From Leptospiraceae bacterium (GTDB lineage: Bacteria; Spirochaetota; Leptospiria; Leptospirales; Leptospiraceae), in assembly GCA_024233875.1 (NCBI GenBank), contig JACKPB010000009.1:149191-208773 (forward strand): a stretch of 59,583 nt of DNA, in the 5' to 3' direction. The translations under genes were made by a program, and so were the position numbers. Positions 8,347 through 57,476 of this stretch are shown here, in pieces. Position 1 is the stretch's first letter. Every line of letters begins with the position of its first letter. Under the pieces are notes generated by a model that was not told where the DNA came from, did not search any database, and saw nothing but the letters and a program-made list of their open reading frames with translations.

Positions 8347-9138
8347 TTAAAAAAGTATATCATATTCTTTTGCAGGTTCTCTGTATTTTTCCCGATAAGA
8401 ATCTTCTAGTTTATTCTTAATCAAACCAATTACTTTTTCTCTCGTTTTTCCTGTTGTTAGAGAAAAAACATCCAAAAGATCATCCATTTTGTTCATATCT
8501 ACTGAAGCTCGGATCAACCCTAAAATTTTTGTATCAATATAGAGATCCAATAGCTCGGACATTCTTTCTCTTTTGGTAATGAATTCAAGGATCAGTACCA
8601 TATCAGGATTGTCTACTTCCATAGATATTTTATGGATGTGCTGCATAGGTGTGTAATCGATCAAAGCACCAATTAGGTAGTAATTTTTTCTTTTCCGTAA
8701 TTCATGGACAGCTTTGCGAATAAGATCAGCATTTGACTCTCTGATGATCGGTTCCACTTTTTCAGGTATTACATGCTCCAGTACATCGCAGAAGAATTTC
8801 GTAGAAAAATAATTAGCTATACTAATGGCTTCTTTGGGTGGTACATGGTAGGTTATGTTTGCAGTGATACTTGGTCCCAAGATGTCTTCTGATACTTTTG
8901 CATTCAAAAAATTCGGCATAAATTTTGTCACTTTTGCCAATGGTTCCCAAGTCTCAGATTGTTCTTCCAATATTGCATGGGTAATTTTTAATCTCAGATC
9001 GGTCAATTGTTCATGAGTGTGTGAATTCAAGTATTCCATAGTTTCTTCACTTGAATGAAGTAAATGGACTATTTTCTGAATTTCTGATTTTTTATTTGAA
9101 TCTTCAAATGAGTGCATAATTTTCCTCAATCTAGACAA
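8347..9138 (-). CDS. Hypothetical protein
   Basis: Intact 263-aa ORF with no recognised motif. The 3-nt gap to murB implies co-transcription. Confidence 0.45.
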   Translation of the reverse strand: MSRLRKIMHSFEDSNKKSEIQKIVHLLHSSEETMEYLNSHTHEQLTDLRLKITHAILEEQSETWEPLAKVTKFMPNFLNAKVSEDILGPSITANITYHVPPKEAISIANYFSTKFFCDVLEHVIPEKVEPIIRESNADLIRKAVHELRKRKNYYLIGALIDYTPMQHIHKISMEVDNPDMVLILEFITKRERMSELLDLYIDTKILGLIRASVDMNKMDDLLDVFSLTTGKTREKVIGLIKNKLEDSYREKYREPAKEYDILF

Positions 9139-11073: not shown

Positions 11074-11973
11074 TTAAATCTTTATTCCCATCTTTTCCAT
11101 CAACCTTTCCAATTCATCCATATCATTATAACTCAAAGAAATCTTTCCTTTTCCAGTTTTAGAATTGTGCTGAACCATAGCTTTGATCGAAAATTTATTT
11201 CTAATTTTTCCTTCTAGATCAAGGATGGATGGATCTTTATCGATTTGGATCTTTTTATTCTCCTGATTTTTGCCATCAACTAATTCGGATACATAATCCT
11301 CTACTTGCCGAACAGTCATCTGTTTTTCCACGATCATTCCGGCTACTTCTTCGAGTTTCTTTTTATCTCCGATGGTAAGTAGTGGTCTGGCATGACCTTC
11401 CGATAGCTTACCTGAGGATACTAAATTTTTTACGCTTTCAGGGAGTTGAAGAAGTCTGATCAGATTAGCGATGGTAGATCGATTCTTTCCTAGTCTGGTA
11501 GCCACTTCAGTAATTTTCAAATTCAATCTTTCTGAGATTGTTTGGTAAGCCATGGCCTGCTCAATTGGGTTCAAATCTTCTCTTTGAATATTTTCCAGTA
11601 GAGCAATTTCTATTGATTCTTTCTCAGAATAGTTCTTTATGATCGCGGGAATTTTAATGTATCCTGCTTCCTTACAGGCCCGTAGCCTTCTCTCTCCTGC
11701 AACCAGTTCATAACCATTTTCGATTTTCTTCACAATGATTGGCTGTATCAATCCATGAACTTTGATTGTCTCAGCCATCTCTGTAATGGTTTCTGCTGAA
11801 AAAGTTTTCCGGGGTTGATTCGGATTCATTTGAATTTCTGATATTTTTATTTCTATAGAATTCGAATCTTTGACTTCCCCTGATCCGGAATCCGAGATTC
11901 CAGTAGAAGTATTTTTATTTCCACCCGGTATGAGATTGCCCAGACCCCTACCCAACACACTTGGTTTTGTCAT
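11074..11973 (-). CDS. parB: Chromosome partitioning protein ParB (Spo0J)
   Basis: ParB box HGLIQPIIVKK..YELVAGERRLRA, an HTH region and a C-terminal dimerisation region. 299 aa. Confidence 0.9.
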   Translation of the reverse strand: MTKPSVLGRGLGNLIPGGNKNTSTGISDSGSGEVKDSNSIEIKISEIQMNPNQPRKTFSAETITEMAETIKVHGLIQPIIVKKIENGYELVAGERRLRACKEAGYIKIPAIIKNYSEKESIEIALLENIQREDLNPIEQAMAYQTISERLNLKITEVATRLGKNRSTIANLIRLLQLPESVKNLVSSGKLSEGHARPLLTIGDKKKLEEVAGMIVEKQMTVRQVEDYVSELVDGKNQENKKIQIDKDPSILDLEGKIRNKFSIKAMVQHNSKTGKGKISLSYNDMDELERLMEKMGIKI

Positions 11974-11982
11974 TCCTTTCTC

Positions 11983-12747
11983 CTACTGATTCTTTTTAAT
12001 AAACTCTTCTGCAAAAGCTAAGTAACTCTTAGCTCCTATTCCATCCGTATCATACACATTGATAGGCTTTCCAAACGAAGGTGCTTCCCCCAGTTTTATA
12101 TTTCTGGGAATCATTGCTTCAAATACTTTTTCCTGAAAGTACTGTCTAACATCTGAAGCAACCTGGTTGGCTAGATTAGTCCTCTTATCATACATTGTAA
12201 GAAGAACTCCCTCCAACTCTAATCCGGAATTCAAATTCTCCTGAACCAGGGAAATGATCTTCATCAGTTGGCTTAGCCCCTCTAAGGCAAAGTATTCTGT
12301 CTGCAAAGTTATTATGACACTATCAGCAGAGGAAAGTGCATTCAAGGTAAGAAGTCCGAGAGATGGAGGACAATCGATGAGAACATAATCAAAATCATTT
12401 TTAATAGATTGAATAGCATCCTTAAGGGCAAATTCTTTTCTCTCTACATTTGCCAGGTCTATTTCAGCTCCACTCAAATTGATATTTGCCGGGAGTATAA
12501 ATAAATTTTCATAATCAGTTTTGATGATTGATTCTCTTATTGAGATTTCCTTCAATAGAACCTCATAGGTTGTTTTTTGAATTTGATTTACATCGATTCC
12601 CAAACCGGAACCTGCATTGCCCTGAGGATCAATATCGACTACCAAAATTTTCTTCCCCATCGATGCGAGATTCGAGGAAAGATTTATAGAAGTTGTCGTT
12701 TTCCCAACGCCCCCTTTTTGATTACTGATTGCAATAATTTTACCCAT
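11983..12747 (-). CDS. parA: Chromosome partitioning ATPase ParA (Soj)
   Basis: Deviant Walker [16 protein letters not shown]. 254 aa. Confidence 0.9.
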
Positions 12748-13522
12748 TGTATTCCCGAATCTCCTTTTGAATGACTTTCCAAAGTCTAGCTTTACCTGTC
12801 TCTTTCTGAACTCTCTTTTTCAAGACTTTTACATTTCGTTCCCCCAAAAAATTCAATTCAGGAATCGAAAATTCACTCTGCTTATCAAATCCCATTCTTT
12901 CTAAAATTTCACCTTCTATACGATCTAGATTTTTCAATTTTCCTAAATATGGAACAAAGCATCCACCCTGTTTGACCAAACCAGAGCAAACTTCCACCGA
13001 CCACGGATATGGGATAGCAGCTCTCATACTCACAAGATCGAATTTCTTTTTTACATTCTCTGCTCTGTCATAGATAAACCTAGGTTCACCGGGTAATTTC
13101 TGATTTCTAGCAAACTCTTCCAGATGTTTCATTTTTCTCTTCTGAGAATCGATAAAGGAAACACTCTTAAACTTTCCTATTAAGAAAAATAGATATCCGG
13201 GCAATCCGGGTCCAGTTCCTACATCCGCGAATTCTGTTTCACGTGAAACACGAAGAACATCCAGAACCTTAGCAGCAAAGAAATAGGAATCCATGATATG
13301 TCTTTCTAAAATTAAATCTGAATCGGATTTAGAAAAGAACCCACCTTCATGATTTTTTAGAATTAAAAATTCATAAAAATTTTGGAGGTGAATCCAAAAT
13401 TCCTCTTTTTGGGATTCTTCGCTAAGACCGGGAAAACGGGAAATGAATTCATATTTAACAGTGAGCATAGTTCTACCTTGGTAAGTTAAGTTTAAAAAGA
13501 GAATAGCTTGAAGACGACACAA
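12740..13522 (-). CDS. rsmG: 16S rRNA (guanine527-N7)-methyltransferase RsmG (GidB)
   Basis: SAM-binding motif VGTGPGLPG in GidB context. The track start is a TTG at 13520-13522. The real start is more likely the ATG of MLTVKYEF near 13471, which gives about 243 aa. Overlaps parA by 8 nt. Confidence 0.8.
13235..13250. other. parS centromere-like site, TGTTTCACGTGAAACA, a perfect 16-bp palindrome, inside rsmG
   Basis: Exact match to the bacterial parS consensus tGTTtCAcGTGAAAca. It encodes VSRET within the RsmG frame. Confidence 0.8.
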
Positions 13523-13524
13523 TG

Positions 13525-13540
13525 CGTTTCACGTGAAACA
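13525..13540. other. parS centromere-like site, CGTTTCACGTGAAACA (15/16 palindromic), just upstream of rsmG
   Basis: Second copy 290 bp from the first. It is flanked by an extended imperfect palindrome CGACACAAT...ATTATGTCG. Confidence 0.75.
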
Positions 13541-13556
13541 TATTATGTCGTATATA

Positions 13557-13877
13557 TTACGGAAGGAGTGGAATTTTTTTAGGATTGAATTTGGGGTTAA
13601 ACCCCTGTTCGAGCAAACTGGATATCGCTTGTTCAATTGTCATAGCAGGTTTGAGGTTGGAGGCAAAAATAGCTAAATTTTCGAATGCTTGCTTGGAGAC
13701 TTCAACGTTTTGAATCTTGATTTTTTTGGTATCCAACATCACATTCACAAGACCCTGCCCGATAGTCTTTTTCTTAGCAGATACTGTTTGTGGTTTTTTC
13801 TTAACTTTGGATTTTTGGGCAACTCTCTTCTTGGATACCTGTTTTCCCTTTGCATTGGCTGGAGTATTTTTGGGCAT
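13557..13877 (-). CDS. Small basic protein with Lys-rich N-terminal tail (possible nucleoid-associated protein)
   Basis: 106 aa. The N-terminal 45 residues are about 40% K/R (KGKQVSKKRVAQKSKVKKKPQTVSAKKK), followed by a globular domain. Co-oriented immediately upstream of parS-rsmG-parAB. Confidence 0.4.
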   Translation of the reverse strand: MPKNTPANAKGKQVSKKRVAQKSKVKKKPQTVSAKKKTIGQGLVNVMLDTKKIKIQNVEVSKQAFENLAIFASNLKPAMTIEQAISSLLEQGFNPKFNPKKIPLLP

Positions 13878-16053
13878 TGCTGGTCACCACCGTTTTATTT
13901 TTAATTTCGGTAGAACTTGAAATTTCCAATGAGTTATTTTAAAGAACCTGATAGATTTGAAACATCCGGAAGAAATAGTCTTATGTTTCACTCTATTTAA
14001 AATAGAAACTTATGTTCTTAGTAAAGATTCCATCTCCAGAGAAAGGCCCCAAAAAGAGAAAATCTTGAAAATCTACCCTGTGGGTACTACAGGCCGAAAT
14101 ATCAAAATTTTCCAAATTTTGGGTATTCTCATATCAACGGAGAAACGAAAATTTCAGCAAATAGTTTACTAACTCACATTACGCAAAGAAGTGAAATGTG
14201 AGGTTGCAGGGAGCCTGCGGACAGCTTGGGCTATCGCCTAAACCCATATTTTTATTGATTTATTAGCAAAAAATGATTTTGATTTTAAACTAAAAAAAAT
14301 TTGAAAAATAAAATACTGCGTAGGATGAGTTACTAATTCATTGCAAAGGGGCATTAGGACTTTTCTCTAGTAGAACAAATATCCTAGCCTCTAATTAGGT
14401 TTCATCAGCCATTCTGACCTTGAACTAAGATTTTAGAGTAAACACAGAAGAGATCTTTGCTCATTAAATAAAGAAGAGGAAATAATTTTCCTCAAATCAC
14501 AAAGAGGATACAATTCAAAAAAATTAAACACCAATTCCCAAATTGCAATAATAGAAGAGATCAAGCATTCGTGACTGATGGAATAGATCTTATGATTTTT
14601 CAGGGAGATGAAAATTTTTATTTATAGTCATTTTCAGAAGGTTTGCGCATTCACAGAAGAATCATCTATAAAACGGCTACAAACCTTACGAAGAAATACG
14701 TAAGTATTTATGAAAACCGGTATAGAAGAAACTCAAATCCACTCTTTCATTCGAACTTTACTTTCCGAACATCCAAAAAATATTTCATTCTATGGATTTT
14801 TAGGAGCTGAGTGATGAAAAACAAAAAATTCCAGGAGTCTTGATAATAGATTACTTTAGAAAGATACAAATTGCATATTCAATTCAAAGTTGATGTATAG
14901 CTAGAAAATAGTACGCAACCCACCCACTCCAAACCGGAGACTACTTTGATTGGAAACTTTAGACCCTTGATTTCGTAACCGAATCTTTTAAAGAAAAATA
15001 CAATAGGATTTCAGATAAGAACCCAAGTTTCATTTTTGAGTGCTTGAAAATAAATATGGATGAATTGAATTGCTTCATTAGTTTACAAAAGCAGAAAGGA
15101 AAATATGAGTACATCGACTTAGAAGACACCCTATATCCATTTTGAGGTAGTACTGAGGAATTCATATTTTGCTAAAAAGAGAGAAACTGAATTGGGAAGG
15201 AAGGAATTTTTAGAAAAAAGGATAACTATCAATACTTAGAAAAATAATCTAAAGTAGATGGAAATGCTTGAATCCTATTTTTTCCGATGAAGTAGGACTT
15301 TGCATTCTGAAGAAATCTCTCCTGTTTAAAATGAAACCTGAATGGTGTTAAAAAGATTGTTCCACCCGCTCTCAATAAGTTTTAAGAATACAATTGCTAA
15401 AACTGAAATTCACAGACAACCGGAAGGTCCAGAAGAACAGTTCAGCGACCCTTCCCCAAACCTCACTCTATTACAGGCATAGAAATAAAATGAAAATTTA
15501 AAAGGCTACTGGATTTGAATTATAAGAAATAAGGATATCAAATAGAAACTTTTGAATGAATTGAACAAACCGTTTGGAATTATTTTCTTTTTGATCTTTT
15601 GAAAAACCGAAATTCATTCTGTTTTTTATTTAAACCATCTTATCTATATGTGCATACATCTAAAAAATTTTCAAATGGGTCGTGATTTTAAAAAAAAGAT
15701 ACATTCCGAAAAAATAAATTTCTTCATTTTTTCTCAATTTTAGATAGAATACTTGCCTATCAACAGAATAGAAGCCTAATGAAGGTTTGTACCAGAAGCA
15801 TGAAGATTTTAAAGAAATAATGGAGTTTAAGCACAAAATCAATCTGATTGAAAAGAATTTAAATTAGATTTTTTAGTAAAAAACTCAATATTTTCCCATA
15901 TTTTTACTATGTCTCATTAAAAAAAAGTACACATTCTAAAAAAATATTATTTATTGGATTGACCTTGCATAGGGCATTTCCGATATTAATTACGGGATAG
16001 ATTTATTTATAAGTCTGTCTTAAATATTGAAAGAGAGTTAAAGGTATAACAAG

Positions 16054-16959
16054 ATGAAGATTTTCAATAGACTAGTCATTCTCTTAGTGCTGATCAACTT
16101 TGGTATTCTATATGCTCAGGATCCAGCTCCTGCAGGACAACCAGACAAAGCTGCAGCAAATAGTGAAGAAGAAGTTACCATTAAGGGCGAGCTTGTTCCG
16201 GATGATGATGCTAATCTTTCCGATGAAGAAAAAGCAAGAAAGAAAGAAATCATTAAGCAAGAAGCTATGTGGAAGAACCCCGACTTTGCTGGTTACAACA
16301 AAGCATTCGAGGATTTACACAAACTTTCCAAAGCTTTTGCTAACAATAAATACAGACTTGCACTTTCCGCTTACCAGTCTGGTATGAACACTATTCTCAA
16401 GATGAGAGAAAACATCGAGCAATACAGAAAAGAGCAATCTGAAAAGAAGCGTCTTGATGAAAAATGGTACTGGCAAAAAATCGATAGAAAAGCTAACGAA
16501 GAAAGATATATTCAACGTGAAAAAATGGCTGCTAAATTAGCTGCAGTTACTTATTTCACTAAAGCGATCAATCACCTCGATGAAATAAAAAATCCTGACC
16601 TCAGAGAAGAGAAAGCATACAAAACACTTCTTTCTTCTGTTTACAGAGCATGGATTATGGCTGAATATGATACACAGAATTATCCTCAGTGTATTCCTAT
16701 CATAGAGCTTTACCTCGAGCTTGATCTTAACGAAAAAGAGTACCCTGCTCATAAATACCTGGCTAGCTGCTATTCTTTCGAAGAAAACACTTTGAAAAAA
16801 TACAAAGCCGGTAGCGATGACCAAGTACAAAAACTCAAGAACAAGAAAAACGTTCACCTTCTTAGAGCAACTGAGCTGAAGTATGGCAAAGGTTCTGTAG
16901 AATACAAACACATTGTAGACATGGTGAATAGAGACGAAGTAATTTCTGTCACTCCTTAA
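16054..16959 (+). CDS. Secreted hypothetical protein (non-lipoprotein signal peptide) with expression-optimised codon usage
   Basis: Signal peptide [23 protein letters not shown] with no Cys. Codon choice differs markedly from neighbouring genes: CTT/CTC, TAC, AAC, TTC, GCT and AAG are preferred. A strong terminator follows. Confidence 0.6.
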
Positions 16960-18404: not shown

Positions 18405-19616
18405 ATGGATAAGTCAATCCCTTACATCCCTCCTATTTCTAGATATACCCGCCAGGTATCTTATGAAGATTGGTTTCTCTCAACAGAATACTTTGAGAAA
18501 AAAGATTATTACAATTCGTTTAAATACTTACTAAAATACATTAATGCTCCAATAGATATACCGGATTCAGACACTCTTGATCTAACAGTTCCCCAGGGTT
18601 CTGTCTATCTTCGTATCAAAGCAGATAAAGAGAAGTATTCATTTTCAATTCCATTTTTGAAGTTCACTAAAGATTCGAATCGAATAGCGGCTATGCGCAG
18701 AATGATTGAGCAGAATTTTTCATCTTTGATATTGAGTCAGATAGTGCTACGTGAGGATGAATTGTATTTTCACTATGAAGATAATATTTATAATGCAGAG
18801 CCTTATAAAATCTATTTTACTCTTGATGAGATGTCCACTGAAGCTGACAACACAGATGACTATTATATAGATAGATTCAATCTGGAACATATCATTAAAC
18901 CTGATTTAGATTATTTTACCAGCGAAGAATATGAGAAATCAAAAGAACTCTTCTATACTATTCTGAATGATAGTATTGCAGGTTCGGAATACTTTGAAGG
19001 TAAGAGAAATTATAATTCAGCCTGTGATTATTTGGCTCTATGTTTATTTAAGATAAAATATGTGATTTTTCCTCAGGGAATTTTAGGAAGAGAAATTCAA
19101 GAAATCTTAAATTATATGTATTCTAATGAAGGTGTTAATACAATACTAAACAACACCAGATTGAAAATTAAAAAATTAATAGAAATTGAAGAATCCAAAT
19201 TCAAAGACAGTCTTTTTCATCCAAAATTCTTTATACCTATCAAACCGCGATTAGATTTGATTAAATTGCAGGAAATACTAAAACCCATCCAAGAAAAAAC
19301 TCAAGAGATTATAGGGAATAAAGCCTACCAGGAATCAGGAATCTATATTCTCTACAATTTGTACTATATCTTAGATGGATACTCGATAAATTCTCACCTT
19401 CAGGATTCCATAGAGCATGCTCTATCAGATGTTTCACAGAAAGACTGGAAGTTTACATCTGATTATTTATTAAAATTAATTAATAATATTATGATTATTA
19501 AACTAGATGAGGAAGGAAATATCACTTCAGGTACACTCGATATATTTGAGACAAGCAAAGAGAAGAAAAGTAAAATGAATTCGATTTTTTCAAAAATCCG
19601 AAATATTTTCAAATAA
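18405..19616 (+). CDS. Hypothetical protein with N-terminal YbjN-like (T3SS-chaperone-like) domain and about 230-aa uncharacterised C-terminal region
   Basis: Residues about 60-170 (VYLRI..YSFSIPFLKF..NRIAAMRRMIEQNFSSLILSQIVLREDELYFHYEDNIY..YFTLDEMSTEADNTDDYY) are recognisably paralogous to the C-terminal domain of the next gene. The YbjN assignment comes from pattern memory only. Confidence 0.45.
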   Translation: MDKSIPYIPPISRYTRQVSYEDWFLSTEYFEKKDYYNSFKYLLKYINAPIDIPDSDTLDLTVPQGSVYLRIKADKEKYSFSIPFLKFTKDSNRIAAMRRMIEQNFSSLILSQIVLREDELYFHYEDNIYNAEPYKIYFTLDEMSTEADNTDDYYIDRFNLEHIIKPDLDYFTSEEYEKSKELFYTILNDSIAGSEYFEGKRNYNSACDYLALCLFKIKYVIFPQGILGREIQEILNYMYSNEGVNTILNNTRLKIKKLIEIEESKFKDSLFHPKFFIPIKPRLDLIKLQEILKPIQEKTQEIIGNKAYQESGIYILYNLYYILDGYSINSHLQDSIEHALSDVSQKDWKFTSDYLLKLINNIMIIKLDEEGNITSGTLDIFETSKEKKSKMNSIFSKIRNIFK

Positions 19617-29295: not shown

Positions 29296-30564
29296 TTATT
29301 TGTCGTTAAGAGCCGCAACACCCGGAAGAACTTTACCTTCAACTAATTCCATAGATGCTCCTCCTCCGGTAGAAATATGGGACATTTTATCGGCAACACC
29401 TGCTTTGTTCACAGCTGAAACTGAATCCCCACCACCAATCACAGTGATAGCACCGGATGCACCTGCTAACGTATTAGCAATTTCTATAGTACCTCTTGAA
29501 AATTTCTCTAATTCGAATACTCCTACAGGTCCATTCCAAAAAATAGTCTTTGCATCGGAGAGAGCTTTTTTGAATAGTTCAATAGATTTTGGTCCGATGT
29601 CCAAACCCATCATGTTAGAAGGGATACTATCTATATCGACAGTTTTTGTTTCTGCATCATTAGAAAACTCGGAAGCAACTATAGCATCAGTTTGAAGAAT
29701 GAATTCGACATTTTTTTCTTTAGCTTTTTCTAATGTAGTCTTTGCGACATCCAGTTGATCATCTTCACAGAGGGAACCACCAATTTCTTTTCCCATAGAT
29801 TTGAGAAAAGTAAACGCCATTCCTCCTCCAATGATAATACGATCGACTTTTTCTAATAATTTTTCAATAACTGTAATTTTTGAAGAAACTTTCGCTCCTC
29901 CAACAATTGCTACAAATGGTTTCGCAGGTGATTTAACAATTTTTTCTTCCAGGAATTCTAATTCTTTTTCCATTAGAAACCCGGCTACAGCAGGAAGATA
30001 TTTGGCTACAGTTTCTGTGGAAGCGTGTGCACGGTGTGCGGTTCCGAAAGCGTCATTAACATACACTTCACCATATTTGATCAATTCTTTTGCTAGTGTT
30101 TCCCGTTCTGACGCTTCCTTAGAAGTTTCTTCCTTATGGAATCTAGTATTTTCAAGTAAAATAATCGCTCCATTAGAGGAATTATTTACAAGCTGAGCTA
30201 TCTCTTCTCCGATGCAACTTTTGGTAACTTCGACCGGTTTTTTCAACAAACCGGAAAGGTGGGATCCGATAGGGGCCAATCGATGATGACCATCAATATA
30301 AGATGCTTCATCAAATTCTTTGCCGGATTTTTCAGCTTTCTCTTTATTTTTTTTAGAATCTTTTTTGGGATCTCCTAAATGTGACATCAAAACTATGGAT
30401 TTCGCTCCATTGTCTAATAAGTATTGAATCGAAGGTAGAGCAGCTTTGATTCTGGTATCATCCTGAATCACTCCATTTTTTATAGGTACGTTGAAATCAA
30501 CCCTCATCAAAACTCTTTTGCCGCTTACATCTATATCTTTTATCGTTTTTTTTGAAATGGACAT
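29296..30564 (-). CDS. pgk: Phosphoglycerate kinase, with a Lys-rich insertion of about 20 aa
   Basis: RVDFNVP hallmark. A hinge and C-terminal domain are present. 422 aa, versus a typical length of about 395. Confidence 0.9.
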   Translation of the reverse strand: MSISKKTIKDIDVSGKRVLMRVDFNVPIKNGVIQDDTRIKAALPSIQYLLDNGAKSIVLMSHLGDPKKDSKKNKEKAEKSGKEFDEASYIDGHHRLAPIGSHLSGLLKKPVEVTKSCIGEEIAQLVNNSSNGAIILLENTRFHKEETSKEASERETLAKELIKYGEVYVNDAFGTAHRAHASTETVAKYLPAVAGFLMEKELEFLEEKIVKSPAKPFVAIVGGAKVSSKITVIEKLLEKVDRIIIGGGMAFTFLKSMGKEIGGSLCEDDQLDVAKTTLEKAKEKNVEFILQTDAIVASEFSNDAETKTVDIDSIPSNMMGLDIGPKSIELFKKALSDAKTIFWNGPVGVFELEKFSRGTIEIANTLAGASGAITVIGGGDSVSAVNKAGVADKMSHISTGGGASMELVEGKVLPGVAALNDK

Positions 30565-30966
30565 CCTATTCCCATCCTCCTTAAGATTCGAAATAATTAT
30601 TTTTCTTCTGATAAGAAAAGTTATGAAATTTCTTCTTTCAAAGTAAAAAAAATGACCTAAAAAAGAAAAGCAATTACTCTAAACTCGGGTTCAAATTTTA
30701 GTAAATGAAAAATGAATCTAAGTACAAGACAAAAAAAACAAAAATATCGGTGAATTGAATCTTAAAAAATATTACAGATAATCTATAATTTTTTAGAATC
30801 ATTAGATTTTCCTAAATTAATTCCTATAGAATTCAGAGAGATTTTAGAGGAAAATATCAGTTATATTTTATTTACCTGTAAATAAGTCCGTAAACAAGTA
30901 TTGTAATAGGTAAATTTCTAGTGAACAAAGTGTTAATAGGACATAATTAAGATTTATTGTCTCTTA

Positions 30967-30993
30967 GACATAATACTGATTACGAATTATGTC
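30967..30993. promoter_or_regulatory. Inverted repeat GACATAAT-N11-ATTATGTC, with an extra direct half-site GACATAAT at 30940-30947, about 145 bp upstream of dnaN
   Basis: Read directly from the sequence. Candidate operator in the dnaN leader or oriC-candidate region. Confidence 0.35.
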
Positions 30994-31136
30994 GTTTATT
31001 GAAAAAGTTATTTTCAAAAAATATGTCGCATATTTTCTATAAAAAAATGTAGTTTCTTGGGGTTAGTTACTTATACACACCGCTAATTATTATTACTATA
31101 TAAGAAAGTTAAATTAAATATATAAGGAGTTTTGCT

Positions 31137-32258
31137 ATGAAGTTCCATGTCAAAACTGGAGATTTTCAAAAAGCTATTTCTGCAGTAGAAGGGGTAATCA
31201 CTGTTAGAGAAATAAAATCTGTCCTCTCTAATTTGAAACTGGAGGCTGAGGAAAACAGAGTTTCTATTTCAGCTACAGATTTGGAAATCTCTATTAAAAC
31301 ATCTATAGCATCAAATACTCATGTTGTTGGAAGTGGATCCATTCCCGCTAAGCAGTTGAGCAATATTTTGAAAGCAATTAATTTCAGTGAAACATCATTA
31401 GAAAATGTGAATGAAGGTGAAAATTCAGCTAAGACTATAATCACCGACGCTGAAAACAAGGTTGATTTCAAAATGATGATCAATGGAATCGGAGGAGAAG
31501 AAATCAAAACGATCTCTACGATAGATGATTCAAGAACATCAGGATTTCAGTGTAATACACTCTCCAGTATGATTAAGAAAACATCTTTTTCTGTTGCTCT
31601 AGAAGACACCAGGTTTGTTTTTAATGGACTGTATGTCAAAAGCTTTGAAAACAAAATAGTTGTAGTTGGAACAGATGGTAGAAGATTAGCTAGAGTAGAA
31701 AGAGAATTTACTAATAACTTACCGTTTCAAAATGGTGTGATTATTCCTCACAAGGCTATAAAAGAGATTTTAAAAATAATAGATCATAATGAATCAGGAA
31801 GAATAGGTTTAATTGATAACCAAATCTATATTAAAATTAATGAGATTGAGTTATTATGTAAATTGATAGATGGAAATTATCCTGACTACGAAGCTGTAAT
31901 CCCAAAAGAAACTCATAATAATATCAAGATGCCAAAAGATAAATTCTTGGTAGCTCTACGTCAGGCTCTGATAGCTGCAGAAGAACCATCCAGACAATTA
32001 AGATTAAGATTCAATGATAATAACTTACATATCAATGCGTCAACTCCGGGGACTACTGAGGCAAACATCAATATTCCTGTGGATTATTCAGGTGAAGATA
32101 CTACTATTGCTTTCAAAGGTGATTTTTTATTAGATATAGTAAAATCTATAGAAGATCAAGAAATCATAATTGAATTCAATAATTCTAATGCACCGGTTGT
32201 CTTTAAAGATCCATCAGATCCACAATATATTTCAGTTGTTATGCCAATGAAATTATGA
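31137..32258 (+). CDS. dnaN: DNA polymerase III beta sliding clamp
   Basis: 373 aa with three-domain clamp architecture. The N-terminus MKFHVKTGDFQKAIS is typical of DnaN. It is followed directly by recF. Confidence 0.9.
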   Translation: MKFHVKTGDFQKAISAVEGVITVREIKSVLSNLKLEAEENRVSISATDLEISIKTSIASNTHVVGSGSIPAKQLSNILKAINFSETSLENVNEGENSAKTIITDAENKVDFKMMINGIGGEEIKTISTIDDSRTSGFQCNTLSSMIKKTSFSVALEDTRFVFNGLYVKSFENKIVVVGTDGRRLARVEREFTNNLPFQNGVIIPHKAIKEILKIIDHNESGRIGLIDNQIYIKINEIELLCKLIDGNYPDYEAVIPKETHNNIKMPKDKFLVALRQALIAAEEPSRQLRLRFNDNNLHINASTPGTTEANINIPVDYSGEDTTIAFKGDFLLDIVKSIEDQEIIIEFNNSNAPVVFKDPSDPQYISVVMPMKL

Positions 32259-33364
32259 AGATAAACTCTATTCTCATCAATTCATTTAGAAATTATGAGT
32301 CTGTGCAATTAAAGTTTAATTCCAGATTAAATTTTTTCATTGGTGAGAATGGAGAAGGTAAGACAAATCTCCTGGAAGCGATTCAAATGTTTTCTACATT
32401 GAAAAGTTTTCGGGACAATACAGATGATGAAATACTTAACTGGGATAAGGATACGTATTACCTCAAAGCAGAGATTCAGAATGCTGATGATGTAGACGAA
32501 TTCGAGATAGGCTTTACAAAATTAGGCACTAAGAAAAAGAAAATCAAACTTAACGAGAAAGAAATAAACCGAAAATTAGATTTTATAGGAAATTTTATAA
32601 CAATTACTCTATCCCCTATAGATTTAAAAATTATCGATGGAGGTCCTGCGGAAAGGAGAAAGTTTATAGATTCGTTCCTTTCGATCTATAACCGTGAATA
32701 TTTAATCAATTTATTGGAATATAATAAAATACTAAAACATAGAAATGCTTTATTGAAATCACAAGCTAAATCTGAAGTTGAACTGGTTACCTGGGACAAT
32801 CTTTTGGTGGAAAAAGGAATTTTTCTTATTTCAGAGAGAATCGGGGTGATTGCCTCTCTCAATGAAATTTATAGGGAAAATCTCAAAATACTAAGCGGTG
32901 AGAAAGATATTTTTGAAATCATATACAATCCTAATGTAAATTCAGAAGAATCCTTTAGGGATAAATTACAAAAGCGAAAACATCTGGATTTAAAATTGGG
33001 ATATACAACAGTCGGACCTCATAGGGACAATTTATTCATTGGTAAAGATTCTAAAGATATTACTGAATTTGGATCCCAGGGACAAAAAAGAAGTTCTGTG
33101 ATAGCCATGAAAACAGCTCAATTTAAACACATAAAAAAAATAAGAAATCAAACACCTGTGCTTTTGATTGATGATGTCATACGAGAATTGGATATAAAAA
33201 GGAGAAATTACTTTCTGGAATTGTTAATGGAAAGCGGACAATCTTTTTTTACAACTACTGATTTAGACGGTCTGGATGATTTTTTAAAAAACTTCCGAAA
33301 CCAGATTTCTATATTTGAAATTAATAAGGGTAAGGTAAAGGAGAATCATTATGAATTCGTTTGA
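32255..33364 (+). CDS. recF: DNA replication and repair protein RecF
   Basis: Walker A GENGEGKTNLLEAI and SMC-like signature. Overlaps dnaN by 4 nt. Confidence 0.9.
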   Translation: MKINSILINSFRNYESVQLKFNSRLNFFIGENGEGKTNLLEAIQMFSTLKSFRDNTDDEILNWDKDTYYLKAEIQNADDVDEFEIGFTKLGTKKKKIKLNEKEINRKLDFIGNFITITLSPIDLKIIDGGPAERRKFIDSFLSIYNREYLINLLEYNKILKHRNALLKSQAKSEVELVTWDNLLVEKGIFLISERIGVIASLNEIYRENLKILSGEKDIFEIIYNPNVNSEESFRDKLQKRKHLDLKLGYTTVGPHRDNLFIGKDSKDITEFGSQGQKRSSVIAMKTAQFKHIKKIRNQTPVLLIDDVIRELDIKRRNYFLELLMESGQSFFTTTDLDGLDDFLKNFRNQISIFEINKGKVKENHYEFV

Positions 33365-33788
33365 TATGGAATCTGATGATTTTTCTAGTTTATTAAGTAA
33401 ATTAGAGATAGATTTTGAGAAATTAAAATCTGAGGTAGAATTTCGTGCGATATCCGATCACTGGAAGGATATAGTTGGTTTGGAGTTTTATAAATTTTCT
33501 AGGCCAAAGAAAATTATTCGTGATACATTGTACATAGGTGTTTATAATTCAGCTTATAAGATGGAACTTCAGTTTGTATCCAATTTATTGATTCAAAATA
33601 TAAATAAATATTCCAAAAATCGAATTTCAAAAATTAGATTGGATTTGGATACAAATATCATTATTCCAAAAGTTGTTGAAAGTAAGAAAAATCATCTAGA
33701 TGGGAAGGAAAATTTAATCTGTATCACGGAAAGAGAAAAAGATGAAACAACAAGAAAAAAACTTTTGTCTCTAATTAAAGTTTTTTAA
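33351..33788 (+). CDS. DUF721 / DciA-like protein
   Basis: 145 aa. It sits immediately after recF and overlaps it by 14 nt. W..IVG......S.P..I.D..L.IGV.NSAY..EL follows the DUF721 pattern. Confidence 0.5.
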   Translation: MNSFDMESDDFSSLLSKLEIDFEKLKSEVEFRAISDHWKDIVGLEFYKFSRPKKIIRDTLYIGVYNSAYKMELQFVSNLLIQNINKYSKNRISKIRLDLDTNIIIPKVVESKKNHLDGKENLICITEREKDETTRKKLLSLIKVF

Positions 33789-33830: not shown

Positions 33831-34367
33831 TTAAAATAATTTAGATCCCTGCATCGAAAATCCCACAAAAGCACAGGCCACAGCATCCCATGAATCATCC
33901 AATCCCTTGAGATCTTCAATTTGAAGTAGAAGTTTTAAAGATGATTTTATTTGATTCTTATCCGCTTTTCCTGAGGTTGTGACACCTTTCTTTATTTGAC
34001 TCACAGTAGGTTCAAGAATCGGGATCGCTCTCTCTGCAAGAGTAAGTAAAATCACACCTCTGGATTGAAAAACTTTTGCTGCTGTTTTTACATTTTTACT
34101 AAAGAATAAGTCTTCAACGCTAGCTAGCTGGGGTTTGAAGTCATCAACAAGAGAAATCAATTCTTTCCTGAGTTGAATCATTGCTTCGCCAAACTCAGTT
34201 TTGGGAGGAATTTCAATTGTACCGTACTTTAGGATTTGTATTTTTTTAGATACATTTTTCTCTAAAATCGCAAAACCAATGCGATGTGATCCCGGATCTA
34301 TTCCTATGATTCTGGAATGTTTTGATTGATTCATAACTTCTCTTTTTTCATTATTATTGTTATACAA
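33831..34367 (-). CDS. ruvC: Holliday junction resolvase RuvC
   Basis: [17 protein letters not shown] (catalytic Asp motif). 178 aa. Not accompanied by ruvAB here. Confidence 0.8.
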
Positions 34368-34682
34368 ATTCTCTTAAATATATATACTTTTCATATTTTG
34401 CAATGTAGCCATTTTATAAATAATTCTTATGTGAATACGCAAATACTTTTGAAAGTGACTGTAAGCTGAAAAACAAATAAAATAAAAATTTGAGTGAATA
34501 AAAACTTCTACTAATTTTCAAAAAGATCTTCATTTGCAGTAGTGAATCAGTAATAAAAAGAATAAATTTTGTAAATTGAAAAATTAAATTTTATCTGAGA
34601 ACTAATAATTATCAACTCGATAAAATAGACTCTTCAATATACTATAAAAATTCATTGCAATCTGAATGAAAGATTTCAAAAA

Positions 34683-35263: not shown

Positions 35264-37201
<1,938 letters not shown>

Positions 37202-37487
37202 TCATAGCTATTTGAACGCAAGTGATTTCCCAATACTCAGCTGTTTTCTCTTTATTATTCTCAATGAACCGACATATGATGGTTTTCGAAATACTTACCT
37301 ATTTCTTCTGAAATTACGTAGCCGATTTATAGCTGATTCTTCAGTGAGTGAGCAAATACTTTTGAAAATGACTATAAATTCGGAAAAAACAAATTGAAAA
37401 AAAAAATTCGATAAATTTATCCTACTGATAAATCTGGTTAGAGAAATTGATCAAATTCTAATCTGTACTTTTCAATAGAGGATAATT

Positions 37488-49113: not shown

Positions 49114-50084
49114 GAGATTCGTTTGATTCCCAAAGCAGAACGAACTTTCTCCAGATTTTTTTGAGCAATCCATCCGGCTTTTTCTTTTCCTTTTTTTAGA
49201 ACAGATTCGATGTAATCCTTATTGCTAATGATTTCTTCCCTCTTTTTTCTATAAGGCTGAAAGTACTCCATAATGCATTCCAATAATTCTTTTTTTATGT
49301 CTCCATATCTGAGTCCCGGTGTCAAAAAACGGGTTCTGAGGTTTTGGGTTTCAGTTTCATTGAGAAACAAACTGTAAATGGCAAATATTGTACTGGTATC
49401 CGGATCTTTTGCTTCATCGATTCCGGCAGAATCTGAGACGATGGACATAACTGCTTTTTTTAAGTCCTTTTCTGAATCGAACAAATTGATAGTGTTTTTA
49501 TAGGATTTGGACATCTTCTGACCGTCTGTTCCCGGTATTACTGCACTGTCTTCATCGATTTCGGGTTCTGGTATTACAAAAACATCTCCATAGTCCTGAT
49601 TGAACCTTCCTGCCATGTCTCTGGTGAATTCTAAATGCTGTTTTTGATCTTTGCCTACAGGTACCACATTTGAATCGAAGGCAAGGATATCTGCTGCCAT
49701 AAGAATAGGATAAATAAAAAGGGATGCATTGGGTTGTAGACCTTTTGAGATCTTGTCTTTATAGGAATGAGCGAGAGAAAGCTGATTCACAGTTATGTAA
49801 TTGCTCAAGTACCAGGTCAATTCTGTCACTTCAGGAACATCCGACTGAATCCAAAATGTAGATTTGTCCGGATCCAATCCCAGGGCCAAAAAATCGGCAA
49901 CAGCATCGTAGGTATTGTTGATCAGGTCATCCCTTGATGAAATGGAAGTCAATGAGTGCAGATTGGCAATAAACAAAAAAAGATCAAAATTATCTTGATA
50001 TTTGATCATTTTCCGCATAACGGAAAAGTAGTTGCCCAGATGAAGTTTTCCGGAAGGTTGAAGACCTGTTAGTATTCTTTTCAA
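49110..50084 (-). CDS. trpS: Tryptophan--tRNA ligase
   Basis: HIGH-region [14 protein letters not shown] and KMSKS. 324 aa. Confidence 0.9.
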
Positions 50085-51952
50085 TTTTCTTCTCTTGATC
50101 CAGATGTAAATTCTTTCCCGGTAAGCCTGAAGTACTCACCTTTGAGTTTATTGAGATCATTTTCTAGCTTATTGTAGCCTACCAATAGGTTAGAAATCGT
50201 TTGATCCTTGAACAAAACAGCGTAGTTGAATAGAAGTTTGGTTAGGTCGTACACTGCATCCTGAACAGTTCTATTCTCTATTCGATTTTGAGTGACGATC
50301 TTAGCAGTTCCGTAGGGTATAAATCTTTGCATGGGTTTCAAATCTTCAAGAGTCTTTTCCCTTGTAGCGTAGGTTTTTTCATTTAGCTCTCCACTTCTTT
50401 CCAGTTCTTTTGCTAAACGATCATTTTCTACGACTACAGCAAGTTTTTTAGCAAATTTACCAAAAAAGTCTGCCGCATCACTGATCAATTTGACAAGAGA
50501 CATTTCTATCTGGTCGGTCGTTCCCTTGGTGAGATCATCGTTGTATTTTTTAAAACTATAACTAAAACTTGGGAATTTTCTATTGAAAGCATCTAGAGAA
50601 CGAAGAATTTGATTGGTTTTGTCTATTTCCGGAAAGAAAAGTCCATTTTGGAAAACCAGTACATCCGACATATTTCCTTTATCTTCTACTTTGATGTATC
50701 CTTCAAAAATTGGTAGGAATTGGGTTTGGATGTCCCTACAGAGCGCTTGAAGCAATTTTGGAGGGGATTGTCTGATAGACTGTTTGATCGTATCCAGCTG
50801 GGAATTGTCAGGATAAAATCGATTGATGTGTTCTGTGAGAATCGCATCAATGAAATCTAAAGAAATTTGATTTTCTTTTTTGAAAGTAAAGTAATTCTTT
50901 CTAACAGTTACCAGTTCCTCAAGACTACCTAATTTTCCGTAAATGTCATTGGATATTTTTGTGGAAGCCATTTCGATTTGCTTCATGATCTCCGGTGAAG
51001 CTGAAAATCTGGATTCATCGATAGGAGTGACTGCTAATTTTTTTTCTATATCTTCCCAGGTGATCAATTTTTTGTTCATAACTACATGAATGGCTATGAT
51101 TGAATCTTTCAAGGTAGGACGACGGGTTTCCAGGGTTAAAATATAAGTCAACCCTCTTACGATCGGTTCCAATTTACCTACTAATTTGGGTTCCATTTTG
51201 ACAAGGTTGGGAATCTTTTCCATGACAATGTCTTTGGTATCGGGTCTCTGAAGAATGCGTACGTAGTACATTTGCATCTTTAAAGATCGTCCCAAGAATA
51301 CTTCAGGGGAAATTTCATCTTTAAAGAGAGAATCGAGGGAGATAAACGCATTGAAAAACCTCCCAAAGTTCACTACTACATTGTACTCTTTGGGTGTCCA
51401 GAATCTCCAGCCTGCCTGTTCACAAAACTTTAGAGCCTGAGCAGTACCGATGATTTCTTCCTCAGATAGGAACTTGAAAATTTTCTCAACATTCACTGAG
51501 AGTGTTGGTTTTCTACCCAATAAACCTAGGTCCAAAGACTTAGATTCTTTTGCAAATTTAGCGATGAGATTGCTTCCTCCAAAAATTCTATCGATCAAAC
51601 TGGCATCATTTTTCTGAGGTTGTTTCTGGGCTTCAGATTGGATGGCGGCTTTTGCAATTTCAGAGGATGGGTTGGCTACTGCTTCAGATCCGGAATTTGA
51701 TCTTGAAGAACCCGAACCGGTAGATCCACCTCCTCCTCCGGAAGGAGCTTTTCTTTTTTCAAGCACCCGTTCTTTTCTTTCGTTCTTTTCAAATTCCTCA
51801 TCTAGTTTTTTGATCATATCAATTCGAATGAACACATCATTCGATCTGGTAATGATTTCGTCTACTTTGGCTTGATGCTCTGCAGAACGACTTTTACGAT
51901 ATAGGTTGGCAAAGATTTTATGTGCTTCGGTTCTACTTACATTTTCATCCAA
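50081..51952 (-). CDS. Large hypothetical protein with Gly/Ser-rich low-complexity linker
   Basis: 623 aa. N-terminal helical region, then [19 protein letters not shown], then a roughly 500-aa domain with no recognised motif. It overlaps trpS and the upstream LolA-like gene by 4 nt each. Confidence 0.45.
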
Positions 51953-54657: not shown

Positions 54658-56253
54658 TTGAGCAATTCATCAGAACGAAAGCATGTATTTTCGATTTACT
54701 CATGGAATCAGGGAGGGTTATTTTTGCAATTTTTGAAAAGTTTGATCTTTCTTTTCGGGTTCAACTTTCTATTTGTTTTTTCTATTCTAAACTCTCAGGA
54801 AAAATTCCCGATTCTCCTTCAAAACTCAGATTCTCTGCTTTTTTGGGAAGTGGTGAATGATTTCCCATTGAACTTCCGTGAGTGGATATTTGCGCCGCAG
54901 ATGAGTAGTCTGCCCGATATCCTGATTGCTATTCTCACTACCGGCGTTCGGAATCCCAATCTTTATCTTTACTTTCATTCTGTTTTCATGCTTTCTCTCT
55001 TCTTTGGATCATTGATTTTATTGAATGGGAAGGATCACTCTCAACCTTTCCGGATTAAAAAGATTCTTCTTTCTTTTTTATTCCCCTTCTTATTTTATTT
55101 TTTGATCTTAGATCAATATTTCCTGGAAAATCAATTGATGTTAAATTCTATCTCTCCCGGTCATCACATGGGTGCTTATGTAAATTCTTTAATCTTATTT
55201 TGTTTGTATCGATCTGAGTTTAAAGGAAAACATTATCTATTAGTTTTTCATTCAATACTTTCTCTTGCATCCTCTTCCTTCTTTTTTTTCTGGGGAATCT
55301 TTCCTGTCTTTGTAGTAGATTTATTTTCTCAATGGAAAAATCTTAAGTTGAAAGATTGGTTGCTCAGGATTCTTGTCTTGCTTTTTGTCTTTTATTCTTC
55401 CTATCGGATTCCAAAGGATTTAAATATTTTAAGATCTTCTTATCTTCTTACAGAGAGGATACTTTTTTCAGGGATTCAATTGCCTTCCGATCTCACTCAG
55501 ATATTAGATGGATCTACATTATTTATGATTTCTATTCTTTTATTGATCTTTTTAGGTTTAGTTTTTAAAAAATGGATACGTATTGTCTCTCCTACCGAAA
55601 AGGCTGAAGTCAGTGAGCATTCACAAAAAATTGATGGTACCCTGGTTCTTTATTTTATTGTTCAATTTGTTTTGAGTTCTCTACTTATTCTCTTTTCAAA
55701 AATATTTTTCAATTTGAATTCGGTACGTTATGAATTTGGTGTTTATTTCTCATTTTTGATTCTTCTGGTGATTTTGATTCCCAAAAAATTGAATTATCTA
55801 TCCTTAGGTTTCTTACCAATATTTATATTTTTTAATTTCAAAAATTCATTTAAAGATTTTATGTACTACACACCAAAATCTTTATCCTGTATCCAGGAAT
55901 TTGTGCCTTACTACAGTGGTTTGGTCCTGAGTGATTACTGGACATCAAGGGAGTTGTTTGTCTATTCTCAATTTTCACTCGAAACTATCCCTCTTACAGA
56001 AAAAGGAGATCAGATGATCTGGCTCGGTAAGCATAGTAAGGCACTAAAACTGGAAAAGGAAAATCCGGAAGTATTGGTCTTCGAAAAAAAAGATTTAAAA
56101 TTTTCAGTGGGGGATTGGGGAAAGCCAATTCAAAAAATGGATTGCGATAAGTATGTATTGGTTCAACTCGATCCCGATCAGAAACAATTCAAATTGAAGA
56201 AGGATAAAATCTTAAAGGATTATAAGCTTTGGAGAAAAGCACTCGGATTGTGA
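54658..56253 (+). CDS. Polytopic membrane protein, hypothetical
   Basis: More than 10 hydrophobic helices and a C-terminal soluble domain. The real start is uncertain. Confidence 0.45.
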   Translation: MSNSSERKHVFSIYSWNQGGLFLQFLKSLIFLFGFNFLFVFSILNSQEKFPILLQNSDSLLFWEVVNDFPLNFREWIFAPQMSSLPDILIAILTTGVRNPNLYLYFHSVFMLSLFFGSLILLNGKDHSQPFRIKKILLSFLFPFLFYFLILDQYFLENQLMLNSISPGHHMGAYVNSLILFCLYRSEFKGKHYLLVFHSILSLASSSFFFFWGIFPVFVVDLFSQWKNLKLKDWLLRILVLLFVFYSSYRIPKDLNILRSSYLLTERILFSGIQLPSDLTQILDGSTLFMISILLLIFLGLVFKKWIRIVSPTEKAEVSEHSQKIDGTLVLYFIVQFVLSSLLILFSKIFFNLNSVRYEFGVYFSFLILLVILIPKKLNYLSLGFLPIFIFFNFKNSFKDFMYYTPKSLSCIQEFVPYYSGLVLSDYWTSRELFVYSQFSLETIPLTEKGDQMIWLGKHSKALKLEKENPEVLVFEKKDLKFSVGDWGKPIQKMDCDKYVLVQLDPDQKQFKLKKDKILKDYKLWRKALGL

Positions 56254-57210: not shown

Positions 57211-57476
57211 ATGCTTTGAGAAAACTTGAAGTTGGTTTTTTTTTATTCAAAATTATATTTTACTTATAAATCAATAAAAATAAGGATTCGGAGATGATGA
57301 TTTCCCATTCTGTCGACGGATCCACGGAAATCTACTCACCTTTCGCATGAAGTGCATAAGGTGAGTTACTTAAAGTCAATATCAAAAATATTTTCACTTT
57401 CATAAAGAACTCAGCTATAAAATGGCTACATACCCAAATAGGAAATCTGTAATTATTTATGAGAATTAGTACATTC

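Follow-up and report, generated by a model that had tools for sequence, protein, structure and literature searches.

Two predicted parS sites at the rsmG-parA-parB locus of an uncultured Leptospiraceae bacterium, near a likely chromosomal origin

In Bacillus subtilis, one of the parS sites lies inside spo0J itself. Bacteria at large have reportedly been covered in the broad survey of Livny et al. 2007. PMC2346475 traces the Spo0J parS sites of B. subtilis to Lin and Grossman 1998 and gives the published parS consensus as TGTTNCACGTGAAACA. In mycobacteria, two perfect parS sequences are found in or near gidB-parA, 1-2 kb upstream of parB and near oriC; one of the two lies upstream of gidB in Mycobacterium bovis BCG and in the 5' part of gidB in M. 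smegmatis, and no further copies were found in those genomes (PMC2346475). Among the spirochetes, Borrelia burgdorferi has a single canonical parS near oriC, at which ParB recruits SMC according to ChIP-seq and imaging data (PMC9712426). Its ParB is missing the LG(R/K)GL motif that stimulates ParA, and ParA is controlled by ParZ (PMC9712426). The literature searched yielded no other spirochete ParB-parS system with experimental data and no paper on parS in Leptospira chromosomes.

The locus described here lies in a stretch of 59.6 kb from an uncultured Leptospiraceae bacterium, hereafter the window. The first site, parS-1 (13235-13250, no strand assigned), is TGTTTCACGTGAAACA, a perfect 16-bp palindrome inside rsmG. 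Read on the minus strand, its codons GTT TCA CGT GAA ACA specify V74, S75, R76, E77 and T78 of RsmG, three residues ahead of the D-x-G-x-G-x-G SAM-binding motif. The second, parS-2 (13525-13540, no strand assigned), is CGTTTCACGTGAAACA, which agrees in 15 of 16 bases and has a perfect 14-bp core; on the minus strand it reads TGTTTCACGTGAAACG, the sole mismatch falling on the outermost base. It occupies a spacer of 88 bp, in which 57 nt separate it from the rsmG ATG (at 13468) and 16 nt from the stop codon of a 106-aa open reading frame (ORF) that lies upstream on the same strand. The starts of the two sites are 290 bp apart. An earlier, sequence-only reading had reported both 16-mers at these coordinates, with a perfect palindrome encoding VSRET inside rsmG and a consensus match for each copy. 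Direct inspection bears this out, with 16/16 and 15/16 positions of TGTTNCACGTGAAACA for parS-1 and parS-2, respectively, and both cores perfect. That reading placed parS-2 in the rsmG leader, a term that is acceptable for the 88-bp spacer, although its status as a leader is not proven.

With as many as 3 mismatches to the 16-mer allowed, a scan of the window returned only parS-1 and parS-2, and so did one that allowed as many as 2 to the 14-mer core. At the composition of the window (34% G+C), the expected number of exact copies of the 16-mer in it is 2.2e-5; for copies with at most 1 mismatch in the 500 bp on either side of parS-1, the expectation is 1.9e-5. A chance origin of the pair is excluded, as had been claimed. 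Scattered copies, which would have spoken for a dispersed repeat, were found neither in the window nor in the 20-kb loci of relatives, and the count of two in 59.6 kb stands beside 0-2 per 14-21 kb locus of Leptospiraceae relatives. Positions 1 and 6 distinguish the Noc-binding site (NBS) from parS (bioRxiv 10.1101/724823), and an NBS identity was rejected, as both sites fit the parS consensus and the window ParB scores under the Noc cut-off. Judged by their sequences, parS-1 and parS-2 are genuine chromosomal parS sites, an ordinary and expected feature.

The likeness to the described systems is close in some respects and not in others. The B. subtilis 16-mer TGTTTCACGTGAAACA is identical and is present in few copies near the origin, which the two copies in the 59.6 kb of the window would match. 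In contrast to B. subtilis, the two sites seen in the window are both at rsmG with none in parB, and the host is a spirochete, with no Noc paralogue or sporulation context. The perfect mycobacterial 16-mer is likewise identical to parS-1, and the mycobacterial pair is found at gidB-parA-parB as in the window. However, the second site of M. bovis lies in parA, unlike the window, the phylum differs and the promoter architecture is not comparable. The gidAB-parAB region of Pseudomonas aeruginosa (DnaA-regulated, oriCII; PMC13438810) contains the same rsmG-parA-parB block with origin-type repeats upstream, but Pseudomonas parS lies 10-20 kb from parAB and not in rsmG. The Pseudomonas boxes are canonical, with demonstrated DnaA binding, whereas the window motif discussed below is a computational prediction.

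The genes next to the sites confirm the claimed partition locus, comprising rsmG (GidB), parA and a parB of full length and chromosomal type. At the head of the operon, rsmG (gidB; 12740-13468, minus strand) encodes 242 aa and scores 78.6 bits against Pfam GidB (cut-off, 27), while its 67 bits against NCBIfam TIGR00138 are under the cut-off of 99.5; its product is matched exactly by the NCBI entry MCB1142500.1, which bears the name "MAG: Leptospiraceae bacterium". It is followed by parA (soj; 11983-12747, minus strand), which encodes a deviant Walker ATPase of 254 aa with KGGVGKTT (Pfam AAA_31, CbiA and ParA), and by parB (spo0J; 11074-11973, minus strand), which encodes 299 aa (Pfam ParB_N, HTH_ParB and ParB_C). 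Since the end of rsmG overlaps the start of parA by 8 nt and only 9 nt separate parA from parB, this tight packing indicates an rsmG-parA-parB operon. The parS pair lies at its 5' end, 1.3 kb from parB.

The encoded ParB has the N-terminal peptide LGRGLGNLI, the CTP-binding motif GERRLRA, a helix-turn-helix and a C-terminal dimerization domain. It passes NCBIfam TIGR00180 (183.8 bits; cut-off, 58.45), fails the Noc model TIGR04285 (237 bits; cut-off, 315) and aligns with the B. subtilis Spo0J chain 6sdk_A at an E value of 2.3e-53. Four positions set the specificity for parS versus NBS, and in Noc these are Q, K, K and R (bioRxiv 10.1101/724823). Aligned to Spo0J and Noc, the window ParB carries R, L, Q and G there, the parS type and the same DNA-specificity residues as Spo0J: the R and G of Spo0J are kept where Noc has Q and R, and L and Q stand where Noc has K and K. 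Two of these positions, R173 and G201 (Caulobacter numbering), make contact with parS and do not vary among ParB proteins (bioRxiv 10.1101/724823). The Caulobacter ParB contacts Q162 and S172 appear as T and N in an alignment read by eye. Because the window ParB, unlike that of Borrelia, keeps LGRGL, a classical ParA-ParB interaction is expected.

The window also contains murB, dapF, pgk, dnaN, recF, gyrB and citrate synthase, and these housekeeping genes place the locus on the main chromosome. Named ParB homologues at 59-69% identity are labeled as Leptospiraceae metagenome-assembled genomes (MAGs), and named Leptospira species are near 55%. When the GTDB genome collection was scanned with ParB, the sole match was a distant locus from Omnitrophica, at 42% identity and without parS; the species or genus of the window is apparently absent from that collection.

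We consider the two palindromes, with a probability of about 0.9, to be ParB nucleation (loading) sites of the chromosomal ParABS system of this uncultured Leptospiraceae bacterium. The observations behind this reading are the site sequences, their uniqueness in the window, conservation at the DNA level, the cognate genes with their motifs and the position near the origin; ParB binding, spreading, segregation and SMC loading would follow from established ParABS biology. By the textbook scheme, reviewed in PMC7333895, ParB dimers encoded 1.3 kb away would recognize each 16-bp site through their helix-turn-helix domains, bind CTP, close into clamps and slide onto the flanking DNA. Such spreading would produce a partition complex over rsmG-parAB, about 17 kb from the origin. 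The LGRGL peptide of ParB would stimulate the ATPase of nucleoid-bound ParA, by which new origin regions would be moved apart, and SMC would probably also be loaded by ParB at the parS sites.

A further role can be proposed for parS-2, which may act mainly as an operator at which ParB, 57 nt ahead of the rsmG start, would repress or modulate transcription of rsmG-parA-parB. Its place in the spacer directly before the first operon gene fits this proposal, and M. bovis BCG has a gidB promoter whose -10 element overlaps with a parS, for which regulation by ParB has been proposed (PMC2346475). Vibrio cholerae ParB is described as a transcription regulator (PMC4010829). However, no sigma-70-like promoter that overlaps parS-2 emerged from a consensus scan, and the 106-aa ORF that ends 16 nt upstream on the same strand makes read-through transcription possible. 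The comparison with relatives, for which eight loci were fetched through ParB homologues (51-68% identity) blind to parS, points both ways. An upstream parS recurs in L009 (68 nt before the rsmG start, with 1 mismatch) and in L011 (99 nt, perfect), but it is absent in the closest relatives, L008 and L015. We regard the operator role as possible but unlikely to be the main one; it is compatible with the centromere reading.

The proximity to the origin that the sequence-only reading claimed did not follow from parS alone, and it is now supported by independent features. Between pgk (29296-30564, minus strand) and dnaN-recF-dciA (31137-33788, plus strand) lies a 572-bp gap of 23.8% GC (30565-31136, no strand assigned), which carries four CGACATAAT-type repeats at 30939-31028 and a fifth at 30589. 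The plain cumulative GC skew proposed as a check follows gene orientation and is ambiguous. Because of this confounding, we adopted the G-C skew at third codon positions (GC3 skew), calculated on the plus strand for 58 genes, with orientation and breakpoint fitted together. A sign change of the GC3 skew at about 29-31 kb accounts for half of the variance and was equaled in 0 of 2000 permutations, while the effect of gene orientation is almost nil (-0.03). Left of the break, the skew is -0.125 for plus-strand and -0.045 for minus-strand genes; right of it, it is +0.101 and +0.143, respectively, and such a switch from negative to positive is of the origin type. The best-fit break is located one gene (pgk) to the left of the gap, and breaks up to 31.5 kb fit almost equally. 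Thus, the orientation-corrected version of the check supports origin proximity where the plain one did not.

The motif CGACATAAT is the most enriched 9-mer in the gap, which holds 5 of its 16 matches in the window against 0.15 expected; window-wide, the 16 matches (12.5 expected) are not above chance. The same motif occurs four to five times in the dnaA-dnaN spacers of the Leptospira-like loci L014 (1146-1248) and L058 (7977-8079). In contrast, canonical DnaA boxes (TTATCCACA, up to 1 mismatch) are scattered over the window without a cluster (16 versus 18.7 expected). There is no dnaA among the window ORFs, and with dnaA outside the window, the assignment of the origin rests on the skew, dnaN and a computationally defined repeat motif. 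Because the skew sign change coincides with an AT-rich gap before dnaN and with repeats common to dnaA-dnaN spacers, the pgk-dnaN gap is likely oriC, as a computational prediction. In addition, CGACATAAT may be a Leptospiraceae DnaA box; the literature searched held no described DnaA box for this family. The parS pair is located about 17.4 kb from the putative oriC. For comparison, dnaA is 5-6 kb from rsmG in L014 and L058, and the distance between parB and the record end is 7-13 kb in two complete Leptospira chromosomes.

Some features of the surrounding gene order can be added. The gene gyrB (35264-37177, minus strand) is found about 1.5 kb past dnaN-recF-dciA, with ruvC and another ORF between them, and no mnmG (gidA) was found upstream of rsmG in the window. 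The order of genes in the origin region differs from that of Leptospira, which in L014 is dnaA-dnaN ... mnmG ... rsmG-parAB.

The claim that the upstream copy sits inside a larger imperfect palindrome is correct, but the structure is restricted to this species. It spans 36 bp (13515-13550, no strand assigned), and the arms that flank parS-2, CGACACAATG and TATTATGTCG, match as complements in 8 of their 10 positions. Within them, CGACACAAT (13515-13523, plus strand) and CGACATAAT (13542-13550, minus strand) represent, in inverted orientation, the repeat that forms the cluster of the putative oriC. Such an arrangement could represent a composite site, in which inverted origin repeats, as candidate non-canonical DnaA boxes, bracket parS so that an origin-binding protein and ParB meet, coupling initiation to segregation. 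The arms match the 9-mer most enriched in the gap upstream of dnaN, the one also repeated in the L014 and L058 dnaA-dnaN spacers. Moreover, DnaA boxes regulate gidAB-parAB in P. aeruginosa (PMC13438810), and Borrelia DnaA may recognize unusual sequences (PMC9879097). Against this, the arm pair is confined to same-species contigs (L002-L006) among the 119 parS-like sites compared in all fetched loci including the window; it is absent in L009 and L011, which have an upstream parS. The motif is at chance level over the window as a whole, the observation was made post hoc and the binding protein is only a candidate. The arms may reflect coincidence or a young composite site, and we judge the coupling of initiation to segregation improbable here. 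If it is true, and the repeat is a non-canonical DnaA box, a composite DnaA/ParB site would tie initiation to partition loading or expression.

The same 36 bp would fold in minus-strand RNA into a predicted 16-bp stem (-17.5 to -18.8 kcal/mol; z-score, -2.76) that starts about 7 nt past the stop codon of the 106-aa ORF, and a hairpin that terminates or stabilizes the transcript of this upstream gene can be imagined. However, the stem is not followed by a U-tract and is missing from the output of the terminator scan, so that an intrinsic terminator was rejected in spite of the stem. The stem consists mostly of parS, which would fold on itself in any context, and its arms are not conserved in L009 or L011. 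We regard a role as RNA as very unlikely.

The 106-aa ORF itself (13557-13877, minus strand) encodes a protein with a basic, lysine-rich N terminus, an invariant KKTIGxGL and a well-conserved C-terminal half. It is an exact match to an NCBI Leptospiraceae bacterium MAG entry and has only 15 homologues among 5.8 billion proteins, labeled at most "hypothetical"; the family has no Pfam or NCBIfam match. The gene adjoins rsmG in the window and in L009 and adjoins fcpA, away from parAB, in L068. A part as a partition accessory, suggested by the resemblance of KKTIGxGL to LG(R/K)GL, was rejected, given its place beside fcpA in a relative and the lack of the basic catalytic residue.

Between this ORF and fcpA lies a 2.2-kb stretch (13878-16053) without an ORF of at least 100 aa. 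It is 99.86% identical in L004, a contig from another sample, and it has no Rfam match; a tblastn search against the ORFs of relatives was empty. Four metagenome contigs from this species break off within it, at about 14199-14332. The stretch was considered as an alternative origin and rejected, as it has no origin repeats and no skew switch. A dispersed intergenic repeat of about 100 nt occurs at 14620-14718, 34363-34488, 37281-37401 and 57369-57471 (70-83% identity; core, GTAGCCnTTTTATAGnTGATTCTTCnGTGAATGCGCAAATACTTTTGAAAATGACTATAA); it has no supported RNA structure, and its copies are not placed consistently with respect to genes. Another repeat, 49 nt long, lies at 14241-14289 and 57240-57288, and a copy coincides with the assembly break point. 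No Rfam match was obtained in the window at gathering scores, nor at E <= 1 in 13400-16100, and the window contains no tRNA genes. Several ORFs had no Pfam or NCBIfam match, namely, 50081-51952 (minus strand; 623 aa), 54658-56253 (plus strand; 531 aa), 18405-19616 (plus strand; 403 aa) and 8347-9138 (minus strand; 263 aa).

With the eight loci of relatives, the window gives nine rsmG genes for a comparison of the intragenic site. The parS core is found at identical rsmG codons in six of the nine (the window, L008, L009, L011, L014 and L015). In these, the 15-nt stretch GTT TCA CGT GAA AC(A/G) is kept, synonymous positions included, while every flanking codon varies. The rsmG of L013 retains 13 of the 14 core bases. 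The rsmG site is lost in L010 and L012 (Leptospira noguchii), where the peptides IKASD and SWKGI stand in its place, and both loci carry parS elsewhere within a few kilobases. Since these two carry unrelated peptides, RsmG does not need VSRET. Since the synonymous positions are fixed while the flanking codons diverge, selection acts on the DNA and not on the protein. The rsmG-internal parS is more constant among relatives than the upstream one. Thus, the reading of the sites as chance matches or as a protein-coding constraint, for which it can be said that one of the two lies in coding sequence, is refuted by the rsmG codon alignment, with its invariant synonymous positions and its two lineages that replace VSRET entirely, together with the chance expectation (about 1e-5) and the non-coding parS-2, and it deserves practically no weight.

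Furthermore, a pattern scan of metagenome contigs, in which the parS core had to be followed by the SAM-motif codons at fixed spacing, returned 52 loci, about 37 of them RsmG genes, with G+C contents from 30% to 60%; because the scan required parS, it shows the existence of such rsmG genes and not their frequency. Its named high-GC members are Leptospiraceae, Leptospirales or Spirochaetaceae MAGs. Three loci of about 60% GC (L040, L044 and L057) have parS at the exact RsmG position of the window with only 27-30% RsmG identity, and their RsmG looks actinobacterial. The V-S-R-E-T codons before the SAM motif may represent a long-lived dual-coding parS slot across Leptospirales, independently reached in a high-GC lineage.

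Other arrangements of parS were seen in the same material. In Leptospira-like loci, a second parS (L010, 5827-5842; L012, 3330-3345; L013, 4411-4426; L014, 7765-7780) is located 46-82 nt from the 3' end of an ORF of 242-273 aa without Pfam match. This ORF precedes rsmG, on the other strand, and no parS-bearing homologue of it was seen in the window. The position of this second parS suggests another conserved intragenic parS slot. Some Leptospirales-like rsmG genes (39-56% GC; L019, L023 and L034) have two in-frame parS sites that encode VSRET, the second 345-366 nt after the first. Four unrelated loci of about 60% GC (L020, L038, L056 and L066) carry 2-4 parS at 99-129-nt spacing in a non-RsmG ORF of 716-782 aa.

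The understanding of ParABS is unchanged by this parS pair, and the extras that the locus offers are modest. The pair, together with the skew switch and the dnaN repeats, provides an annotation anchor for the partition locus and the origin, so that a likely origin, next to dnaN and without the usual dnaA-dnaN pairing, is placed in an uncultured Leptospiraceae genome. The rsmG site, conserved over long times as what may be a dual-coding slot, is a clean example of a DNA-binding site that fixes a pentapeptide, VSRET, in a housekeeping enzyme over long evolutionary distances. Finally, CGACATAAT becomes a candidate origin repeat for the Leptospiraceae.
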